In this document: positions 15,001 through 18,000 of the stretch, piece by piece
Layout of the letters: each line of letters begins with the position of its first letter
How positions within the stretch are numbered: the stretch's first letter is position 1
From: Mycoplasmatota bacterium
Lineage (GTDB): Bacteria; Bacillota_I; Bacilli_A; MAG-NZ
Assembly: GCA_018394315.1 (NCBI GenBank)
Contig: CP074575.1
Coordinates: 1,148,615-1,212,614 of the forward strand
Direction: 5' to 3'
DNA length: 64,000 nt
Position numbers: made by a program

Positions 15001-18000
15001 AATGTTATTTATGTAAAGCCAAGCTTTGCTGGTGCAAAAAGTGAGTTAATTAAATATATTCAATCAGATAGAAAACTTCCAAAAGCCTTGATCGTAGATA
15101 ATAATATGGTTTATGCAGCCTTAATTAACGCATTTAATACTCTTAAAATTGATTCTTCAGAATTTGTGTTAATAGTCGTTAACAATGACATTACGAATCA
15201 AGTTTTGGGGAACCGAGCGTGGATTATGGATGTTTTACCTGAGACAATGGCGTACCATGCAATTAAACGAATTTATGAAAAAATAATATATCTTGATGGA
15301 AACAAAATCAAACATTTAATAAATCCTAAGTTAATCAAATTTAGCAGTGAGATTTAATGAATTAGCATATCACATAAATAGCCATTAACTACTGAAGTAT
15401 AAGTAATTAATGGCATTTTTATGTAATTTTTACTATGATTTTAAAAACCTATTTGGTTGAGAGTAAATTCATGCTTTAAATGTGTTCCCTTAAGAAAAGA
15501 TAATCAAAGTTTTGTTTGGAAATCCTCAATAAATTTTTCAACTAACCTATTTGTCCAACTAGAGACCGGCTCTAATTTACCGAAGAAAAATCTAAGAATT
15601 TCTGGTTCTTCGGTAAATTTTAAGCCTTCAATCAGTTCTCTGTTTTGATATAGCCATGTAATTCTATCTACGGCATATTTAACATGAGATAAACTAAATA
15701 CTCTACGAGGTAAAGCTAAGCGCACTAATTCTAAATTAGCCAAAGTGTCAGATCCATCTGTCTGTCTTTCTTCTGATAATGTACCACGTTCCATTCCGCG
15801 TATCCCACTTATTATATATATAGCAGCAGCTAGAGCTCCTGCTGGGTACTTTTCTTGTGGTATATGACTAACAAACTGAAGTGCATCTATATGACATCCT
15901 AAACCACCAGCGGGAGTAATAACAGGCACACCATTTTTCTTTAATTCATTAGTCATGAATTCTATAAATTGTGGACCTTGGCTAATGATATCTTCATCCA
16001 TAGTTTCTTCTAAACCTACAGTAATTGCTTCCATCTCTTTTACTGACATTCCACCATAAGTTATGAAACCTTCATATAGTGTTAGAAGTACCTTCATTTT
16101 TGAATATATTTCCTCATTGTTTAGACATATTCCTCCACCTCTAGCTGAACCTAGTTTTCTACCGGAGAAATAGATAATGTCACAACAATCAGCTATCTCT
16201 TTAGTTATTTCTTTGATACTCATACTTCTACATGCATCTTCTCTAGTCTTTATAAAATGTAAGTTGTCACTTAATAAGCTTGCATCCATCACTAGTATTA
16301 TGCTGTTGTCCTTACAAACCTTACTAACTTCTTTAATATTTTCTAATGAAAAAGGTTGTCCTCCTATTAGATTAGTACCTGCTTCCATCCTAACAAATGG
16401 GATTTTGTCCCTTCCAAGTTTATTAATTAAAGACTTTAATTTTTTTATATCCATATTTCCTTTAAATAGGAAAGAACTTTTAGTCTCTAAACCCTCTTCT
16501 ATAAGTAATTCTTCTATAGAACCGCCATTCAACATTATGTGTGCTTTAGATGTTGTGAAATGATAGTTCATTGGTACAACTGAACCTTCTTCTACAAGAA
16601 CTTTAGAGATTATATTTTCACATGCTCTACCTTGATGAGTAGGTAGAATAAAATTCATACCAAATAATTCTTTTAATTTAGCCTCAAAACGATAGAACGT
16701 CTCACTACCAGCGTAACTATCGTCAGCTATAAACATTGCTGCTTGCTGTTTATCACTCATCGCATTGACACCACTATCCGTAAGCATATCCATAAATACA
16801 TCTCTATTTCTAAGTAAGAATGTATTGAAACCAGCCTCAACCATGGCGTTTTCTCTTTCTTCAATTGGTTTTAGAGATATTTTTTGCACTATTCTTGCTT
16901 TATGCATCTCTAAAGGGATTTTTTCTCCACTTAATAATTTAATCATACTTTTTGCCTCCATTTTCCTCGATTTAATATATAAAAAACCGTCCTTTGTTTG
17001 TTTAACAAAGGACGGATTATAACCGTGTTACCACCTGAATTTATCAATGTCTCGCAACATTGACCTTAATAAGTATCTATCAATACCTTACACGTTAACG
17101 AGTGTAAATCCGGTTTACTCCTACTATGATTTTAATCAATTCAAAGCACTGCTCATGAGATGTATTCATAAAAGTTTTCTTTGAACCTCTCATCAACCGG
17201 TATCTTTCTGTAAAGAGTAAACTTTAACTACTAATTCTCAGTCATTGCATTTATATATTGATATTATCTTACGCGAATATTGTCGAATTGTCAATAATTT
17301 AATAAATTTTTAGAGCCTTGGAGAATTAAATATATAGAATAATACTAGAAACTGCATAATTTTGGGATAACATTAAAGATATAGTCAAGAATATAATTTG
17401 TTTAATCCATTCTTTATATTAATGTGAATTCTGTTAAGGAGATTTATTATGAGAATAGATACTGTTTTATTTGACTTAGATGGAACTTTAATCAATACTA
17501 ATGAAATTATTATTAACTCATTTAAATACGTTTTTGAAACTTATTTTCCGTCCAATGTACTTACTAGAAAAGAAGTATTAACATTCTTTGGTCCGACATT
17601 AAAAGAAACTTTTGGAAAATATACTGATTCTCAGAAAAAAGTACTTGAAATGGAGAAGATGTATTTGAGTCATTATAAAGAAATAGAAAGTGATATGTAT
17701 GAATTATATCCAGGAGTTCTTGAAGTTCTTCAGAACCTAAAACAAACGGGTTATAATTTAGGCATTGTAACTACTAAATATAGAAAGTCTGCAATGCCAA
17801 GCATTGTTAACTTTAAACTGGATGAGATATTTGAGGTGATTGTTACGTTAGATGATGTAAATAGTCCTAAGCCCTCTTGCGAACCGATTGAAGTCGCATT
17901 GAGGAATTTTCCGGGCTATAAAAAAGTAATGATAGTTGGTGATAATAGAAATGATATATTAGCGGGAAAAAACGCTTCTGTTTATACTGCAGGAGTAGCT

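Follow-up and report, generated by a model that had tools for sequence, protein, structure and literature searches.

In a 64,000-nucleotide stretch of the genome of a Mycoplasmatota bacterium (contig CP074575.1, positions 1,148,615 to 1,212,614; hereafter the window) we identified a gene of the PLP-dependent beta-lyase family which is preceded by a T-box leader specific for tyrosine. Judged by sequence comparison, the link between leader and gene is conserved and reinforced in several ways, and it concerns an enzyme branch that is uncharacterised and widely misnamed. The results suggest that the enzyme of this clade, which is usually mislabelled as tryptophanase, makes tyrosine from phenol rather than destroying tyrosine. 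In our preferred reading, to which we assign a probability of roughly 70%, it would provide tyrosine by combining phenol with a three-carbon donor and would be the counterpart of indole salvage by lone TrpB. The features of the locus are as follows (window coordinates):

17266..17294, minus strand, sigma-70-like promoter (TTGACA-17 nt-TAAGAT) just before the T-box, by consensus match only
17005..17254, minus strand, complete T-box leader (Stem I, II, IIA/B, III and antiterminator; Rfam RF00230, model positions 1-219)
17162..17164, minus strand, specifier UAC, a Tyr codon with A as its next base, in the Stem I loop GAA-UAC-A
17007..17037, minus strand, antiterminator, whose UGGU bulge (17033-17030) can pair with the 3' end of tRNA-Tyr (A73-CCA)
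16980..17015, minus strand, intrinsic terminator with a 12-bp hairpin at 17015-16987 plus U run, overlapping the antiterminator, predicted from sequence
16955..16959, minus strand, ribosome-binding site GGAGG, 8 nt upstream of the start at 16946
15504..16946, minus strand, gene of the PLP beta-lyase family, 480 aa, from a separate TPL-like clade (the longest ORF extends to 16961, 485 aa)
15381..15414, minus strand, terminator-like hairpin 3' of the gene, predicted from sequence

The survey's finding had placed a T-box ahead of the gene (contig positions 1165619-1165868) with UAC as its specifier codon, and both statements were borne out. The leader matched RF00230 with a score of 102.2 bits and E 2e-21, the gathering score being 93, covered the full model (1-219) and is one of 17 T-boxes in the genome. 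The specifier is closed by a basal helix UGAGA/UCUCA (17240-17236 / 17160-17156), the UGGU bulge agrees with the A73 discriminator of the genome's own tRNA-Tyr(GUA), and the overlapping terminator has a predicted folding energy of -18.2 kcal/mol, compared to about -4 to -5 kcal/mol for the free antiterminator. The readings of the genome's own leaders that had served as calibration were reproduced: the tyrS leader also carries UAC-A, and the trpS, pheS, proB, asnB, metG and alaS leaders gave the cognate codons in the same register, the gene names at these leaders, trpB excepted, being taken from the N-termini. Derivation by recent copying of the tyrS leader of this genome was rejected, since the leader is 52% identical to that one and 52-93% identical to the main group of clade leaders. 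T-boxes built in this way turn their genes on in response to uncharged cognate tRNA.

The gene probably starts at position 16946, as indicated by the position of GGAGG, the length of a relative (P0002, 480 aa) and the start of the gene at the related locus L181, which lies at the same place; the 59-nt spacing between T-box and gene reported earlier agrees with this start. A promoter-like site places the RNA start just before the T-box, and such a site precedes the T-box of L181 in the same layout; as a class, promoter-like sites were not above chance (7 seen, 11.4 expected). Because a terminator-like hairpin follows the gene, the unit is probably monocistronic.

The protein fits the beta-eliminating lyase family (fold type I, PLP lysine K269; PF01212 on the relatives). 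By the scores of the defining models it is neither a tyrosine phenol-lyase (TPL) nor a tryptophanase of the TnaA type: it failed the TPL equivalog TIGR02618 (446.8 bits, cut-off 720.7), as did three other clade members (429-453 bits), and it failed both TnaA equivalogs (TIGR02617, 352 vs 825.8; NF053783, 399 vs 750). The broad subfamily model PRK13238 was the only model passed (600.7 vs 285) and is the source of the name tryptophanase. The best solved relatives are TPLs at approximately 40% identity, and the ranking of PDB matches in the survey was reproduced, with TPL 2ez1 (E 3e-112) ahead of the tryptophanases (about 1e-93 or weaker). The AlphaFold model (pLDDT 93.4) has the TPL fold, with Foldseek TM scores of 0.88-0.90 to TPL structures (2ez1, 9j3u). 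In a FastTree analysis of 112 sequences, rooted on TnaA by arbitrary choice, the window protein, 80 GTDB relatives, P0122 and P0127 formed one clade (support 0.996), which is sister to the TPL group (support 1.0) and stands apart from TnaA. The claim of a separate TPL-like clade that is about 40% identical to TPLs holds up.

Across 81 members the catalytic core, T124, M379 and R381 (TPL numbering) are invariant, and F448/F449 are present in all 78 complete sequences. According to the available text of PMC11301627, the phenol hydroxyl in TPL is bound by T124 and R381, and tryptophanase needs Asp133 and His458 for tryptophan; equivalents of this last pair are absent from the window protein, which has T136 and F458 there. 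In the 485-aa numbering, Y83, T136, N197, D226, K269 (PLP), R392, R414, F458 and F459 are kept, and L229, R268 and F299 replace TPL R217, K256 and M288. The earlier statement that the TPL pocket is kept holds for T124, R381 and F448/F449; it overlooked R217L, K256R and M288F, substitutions that all 81 members share, and a gap of one residue in the N262 loop, seen in the five members displayed and apparently fixed in the clade. The clade signature also includes E69D (78 of 81). In TPL, R217 presumably touches the PLP O3' and the substrate carboxylate, and we take E69, K256 and N262 to form the K+ (monovalent-cation) site. On cation-site residues, nothing was found in the available text of PMC2770544. 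The clade thus appears, from these alignments, to carry the phenol pocket set on an altered cofactor environment.

With TPL (EC 4.1.99.2; Citrobacter freundii 2ez1; 9j3u), its sister group in the tree, the clade has in common the fold and residues Y71, T49, R100, F123, T124, N185, D214, K257, M379, R381, R404, F448 and F449, but it differs in R217L, K256R, E69D, M288F and the N262-loop gap and is approximately 25 aa longer. Regulation appears to differ as well, the clade being under tyrosine-shortage control whereas TPL is under tyrosine-excess control; tpl is activated by TyrR. TnaA (EC 4.1.99.1; TIGR02617, NF053783) and the clade share the family, the fold, the catalytic core and a Phe at TPL position 288, but they are 33-36% identical and the clade has Thr and Phe in place of Asp133 and His458. 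In its available text, PMC6424909 covers canonical TPL only (at least 70% identical). The tryptophanase panel of PMC12980246 (2026), in the part available, includes an Anaerobacillus enzyme with poor tryptophan activity, AarTIL (WP_071313236.1), whose mass fits a 482-aa clade member; AarTIL is absent from the 120 listed matches and 6 clusters.

A second homologue in the genome (contig position 1539335) is 36% identical, carries the TnaA-type residues D and H, and has no T-box. The survey regarded it as the genuine tryptophanase, which agrees with these residues and the absent T-box; among the equivalog models TIGR02617 fits it best, but below the cut-off (660 vs 826). At 12 canonical TPL/TnaA loci no T-box was found. 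In two genomes (G004 and G016) the clade gene occurs alongside a canonical TPL and another copy that scores as TnaA, which fits a division of labour.

To define how far the pairing is conserved, relatives were collected anew; 299 were found, compared to the 303 counted before, and the best 80 of these 299 were studied. A profile built from T-boxes detected a T-box directly upstream of the gene at 27 of the 80 GTDB loci, all 27 within the 55 loci labelled as Bacillota or Mycoplasmatota-type; three of the 53 negative loci have less than 120 nt of upstream DNA. The earlier observation that T-boxes occur at part of the loci (18 of 40) holds for the full set. In the order of genome G005, an even sample of 151 genomes contained the gene in 24, and a T-box was present at 19 of the 23 loci with upstream DNA, 15 of the 19 being new. 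In total 42 distinct T-box leaders were obtained, and UAC followed by a purine stood at the aligned place in 42 of 42, in agreement with the 18 read by eye before. Unaided, a crude helix script returned UAC in 32 of the 42 and chose the wrong helix in 10; it misread ACA once, from a terminal mismatch, and was also wrong at 5 of 11 control leaders from the window genome itself. The helix below the specifier covaries among relatives, with freely varying closing pairs (TGAGA/TCTCA, GGCG/CGCC, TGAGGA/TCCTCG, AGGG/CCCT and CGGAA/TTCCG), while UAC-R is constant. Rfam confirmed 11 of 12 tested relative leaders, with that of L021 below the cut-off. The majority of leaders cluster together and follow the gene; those of L038, L095, L115 and L116 are placed elsewhere, weakly supported, which hints at leaders of more than one origin. 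Cultured carriers of the gene include Alkalibaculum bacchi, Sporanaerobacter acetigenes and Rhodobacter capsulatus. Among close relatives the gene is patchy: besides the window genome it was found in 2 of 40, one of which (L182) has no T-box.

Other putative tyrosine sensors were found among the relatives. In Johnsonella, whose genome is the sole one of 23 non-T-box genomes without tyrA, a leader peptide containing an uninterrupted run of six Tyr codons, accompanied by a terminator, precedes the gene. Each of the three CPR loci carries a tandem pair of short peptides, and every one of these peptides contains YYY and is paired with a terminator. Leader peptides were counted only if YYY was accompanied by a terminator or by conservation, small ORFs with YYY being present also in 9 of 500 control regions; a general screen for Tyr-rich small ORFs gave 9 of 54 for Tyr vs 18 for Phe, so that Tyr was not clearly above other residues. 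In 7 of the 42 T-box loci a Tyr-rich uORF lies between T-box and start and reaches the gene start, overlaps it or enters it in frame; none is present in the window. The B. subtilis rtpA leader likewise combines a T-box with a leader peptide, rtpLP, which has Trp codons where these seven relatives have Tyr. Dense GUAG repeats were found at 9 of 53 non-T-box loci vs 0 of 500 control regions. In genome G036 the same two-site XAG leader precedes both the clade gene and aroF-tyrA, and the clade gene therefore appears to be co-regulated with biosynthesis there. As candidate binders, a HutP-family gene adjoins aroH in four of five GUAG-repeat genomes, and TRAP was found likewise in four of five; according to the available text of PMC2425495, HutP of B. 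subtilis binds XAG sites and switches a catabolic operon on. A scan for TyrR boxes at the non-T-box loci gave three loose, unconvincing matches. For approximately 35 of the 80 loci by tally, including proteobacterial, planctomycete and many Bacilli loci, no sensor was detected, and the role may differ in those lineages.

The neighbourhoods of the gene were inspected at the 80 loci. At L095 the order is Tyr T-box, clade gene, aroF, tyrA, aroA, aroC and aroB (the last three names assigned from sequence), and another aroF, oriented divergently, lies behind a UUC (Phe) T-box. At L051 tyrS lies 87 nt downstream of the clade gene, and at L053 and L054 a Trp T-box with trpB lies 3 kb upstream; between the clade gene and its tyrS and trpB neighbours there are hairpins and probable promoters. 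Beyond close kin no neighbour is conserved except trpB at 3 of 80 loci, and no conserved neighbour gene points to a source of phenol. A proposed contrast in permeases between the clade and canonical TPL was abandoned, because neither of two canonical loci shows one either.

The genome of the window (G000) encodes tyrA, aroA, aroB, aroC, chorismate mutase, aroE, aroQ and aroF, with no T-box on the tyrA-aro operon, and has a lone trpB under a Trp T-box. With a full aro-tyrA operon present, the clade gene would be a supplement there and not the rescue of an auxotroph. Across genomes, 8 of 27 T-box genomes had a tyrA match above the cut-off, compared with 22 of 23 others, the 23 being chosen out of 53; a trpB lacking trpA was found in 15 of 28 T-box genomes and in 1 of the 23 others. 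Genome size (median 2.0 vs 3.7 Mb), lineage and gaps in the MAGs confound both broad comparisons. In the sample from a single order, tyrA was absent from 11 of 24 carriers vs 35 of 127 non-carriers (p=0.09), and from 10 of 19 genomes with a T-box locus vs 36 of 132 (p=0.033), with kin that are not independent. The tie between the clade gene and loss of tyrA within one order is weak.

Tyr-specific T-boxes are known from the B. subtilis tyrS leader. In the B. cereus group they are found on the tyrosine biosynthesis operon and on phenylalanine-4-hydroxylase, as described in the available text of PMC2494555. These leaders share with that of the window the UAC specifier and the terminator/antiterminator and offer a precedent for an enzyme of tyrosine supply; the target in the window differs in being a beta-lyase-family gene. 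The terms tryptophanase, phenol and lyase are absent from the text of Wels 2008 (PMC2494555), and its supplements yielded nothing; terms for the pairing or the clade are absent from the TBDB main text. In the literature searched we found nothing on a T-box with this clade or on the clade itself, although Vitreschak 2008, RegPrecise and the TBDB tables may list the pairing.

The survey had argued from the logic of the T-box to a tyrosine-forming role. This argument is supported by the Tyr specifier together with the leader-peptide attenuators, the aro/tyrA operon of L095 and the aroF-tyrA-type leader of G036, the last three being independent support for the regulatory logic. We are confident, if short of certain, that the clade enzyme serves tyrosine supply, and given such a role, phenol is its probable substrate. 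As carried over from known T-boxes, the UAC specifier would be read by the anticodon of uncharged tRNA-Tyr, and the UGGU bulge would bind the free ACCA end of the same tRNA, upon which the antiterminator would form and the gene would be transcribed. The fold-type I enzyme would then form a PLP-aminoacrylate from L-serine or cysteine (beta-replacement), or from pyruvate and ammonium, and join it to the para carbon of phenol drawn from the surroundings, yielding L-tyrosine. A tight shut-off at plentiful tyrosine would keep a reversible enzyme from destroying it.

The main difficulty for the reading from phenol to tyrosine is thermodynamic. TPL is regarded as a degradative enzyme. Its thermodynamics favour breakdown, with synthesis run at 1-10 mM substrate, and the tyrosine synthase TyrS was derived from TrpB by engineering, since the reverse reaction of TPL requires phenol at toxic, millimolar levels, according to the available text of PMC13174591. 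Speculatively, R217L, K256R, E69D and the N262 gap, which lie near the PLP/cation site, may turn breakdown into synthesis, and a serine or cysteine donor might lift the thermodynamic limit if the aminoacrylate were held long enough. That the clade is a natural tyrosine synthase which uses micromolar phenol and a serine-derived aminoacrylate almost irreversibly, possibly cation-free (Arg256 in the K+ site), is a tentative proposal that we hold to be possible but doubtful. Stand-alone TrpB serves indole salvage. Lone TrpB salvage and TyrS share with the proposed reaction the joining of an aromatic ring and a serine-derived aminoacrylate to give an amino acid, but TrpB and TyrS are of fold type II and the clade is of fold type I, and TyrS is man-made and without lyase activity.

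R217L removes a residue that is conserved in TPL and TnaA, and M288F is TnaA-like, so that the substrate may differ. Tyrosine might accordingly be supplied from something other than free phenol, for example by release or repair from a modified form. All regulatory evidence points to tyrosine supply and none of it to phenol, and the fixed R217L, K256R and M288F would fit an altered chemistry; against this, the full set for C-beta/aryl cleavage and the binders of the phenol hydroxyl are retained and there is no conserved partner gene, and we consider such a substrate unlikely. Less likely again is a guard enzyme that destroys tyrosine analogues (DOPA, halotyrosines, D-tyrosine) which would otherwise be loaded on tRNA-Tyr during starvation. 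Induction by uncharged tRNA-Tyr, the tyrS neighbour at L051 and the presence of the gene in prototrophs such as G000 agree with it, as does the acceptance of ring-substituted tyrosines by TPL (available text of PMC13174591), but the first place in an aroF-tyrA operon, the aroF-tyrA-type leader and the lean towards genomes without tyrA and with lone trpB are not readily explained, and the T124/R381/F448 pocket would cleave the scarce tyrosine too. Slightly less credible still is an ordinary catabolic TPL on which the T-box is a relic or a functionless inheritance: the fold and pocket are those of TPL, most leaders are one group travelling with the gene, many loci have no detected sensor, and B. 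subtilis HutP turns on a catabolic operon, but UAC is constant across 42 leaders while the helix beneath covaries, at least three unrelated types of sensor report tyrosine shortage, and canonical TPL coexists without a T-box. The annotated function, tryptophanase, finds agreement in PRK13238 (601 vs 285) and in the Phe at the M288 position, and is the least credible of all because both TnaA equivalogs failed (352 vs 826; 399 vs 750), the Asp and His needed for tryptophan (available text of PMC11301627) are missing, the genome has a separate TnaA-type copy and the specifier is for Tyr and not for Trp.

Of 8000 scored candidates, 7852 fell at E<=1e-150, membership in the clade being checked for part of them. 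Thousands of sequences carry the label tryptophanase or TPL, a large annotation error through which their hosts would be taken for producers of indole or phenol. If tyrosine formation from phenol is true, the clade would represent a natural route to tyrosine that bypasses prephenate, for anaerobes and even CPR bacteria. Phenol would then be a currency that is cross-fed from tyrosine fermenters to scavengers, as indole would be through lone TrpB. Phenol in digesters, sediments and guts would become a nutrient, and a biocatalyst for tyrosine analogues would be at hand.

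The leaders found before genes of the tyrosine phenol-lyase (TPL)-like clade in relatives are of several kinds, and comprise the following features:
L060:1413-1653 and 1966-2202, tandem T-boxes with UAC (Tyr) as the specifier in both, in Alkalibaculum
L031, L034, L037, L055, L056, L071 and L086, a Tyr-rich uORF with its own RBS between the T-box terminator and the gene start
L050-L052 (CPR bacteria), two tandem leader-peptide attenuators approximately 140-370 nt upstream of the gene
L094 and L097, a conserved 7-codon ORF approximately 250 nt upstream, its last three codons Tyr
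L059, L062-L064, L074, L076, L077, L079 and L081, two-site XAG-repeat leaders, with L173:1440-1600 and L143-L146 grouped with them

Only the second of the two Alkalibaculum T-boxes (1966-2202) reaches the Rfam cut-off. The Tyr-rich uORFs at the seven loci reach or overlap the start region of the TPL-like-clade gene, and such a uORF following a T-box is possibly a second, translational tyrosine sensor. Each of the two attenuators in the CPR loci carries YYY and a terminator, and the 7-codon ORF possibly represents a minimal leader peptide. Several of the two-site XAG-repeat leaders contain a terminator, and site II could base-pair with its 5' arm. In comparison genome G036 this type of leader is also present before aroF-tyrA, and in the XAG-leader set a HutP-family gene was located immediately upstream of aroH in all four loci seen. 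Upstream of an unrelated gene (L020:11266-12006 (-)) lies a small ORF with YYYFFFFF codons, which may be an aromatic amino acid attenuator or an AT-rich run that arose by chance.

Eight of the proteins compared (P0123-P0126, P0129 and P0132-P0134) are approximately 890-930 amino acids long and consist of a tandem pair of TPL/tryptophanase-like units; these are either fusions or assembly artefacts.

The surroundings of the gene in the source genome contain these features:
window 7780-15357 and 17449-18111, genes for sugar ABC transport clustered with those for a carbohydrate kinase and a regulator of the LacI family, plus a PpaX-like phosphatase gene in divergent orientation
window 18157-21787, an FMN riboswitch (115.6 bits) followed by an operon whose genes were identified from their sequences as ribD-ribE-ribBA-ribH
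contig 1213044-1214464, just past the window, a lone trpB preceded by a T-box with the Trp specifier UGG
contig 1492471-1492680 and 1924135-1924328, T-boxes

The riboswitch and rib operon form an ordinary arrangement. The phosphatase passed NF009804, and neither it nor the transporter cluster showed any sign of connection to the pairing of T-box and TPL-like gene. The first ORFs downstream of the T-boxes at 1492471 and 1924135 encode small proteins that are not synthetase-like in appearance. No trpA was found in the genome (93.6% complete), and the lone trpB with its Trp T-box probably serves indole salvage.
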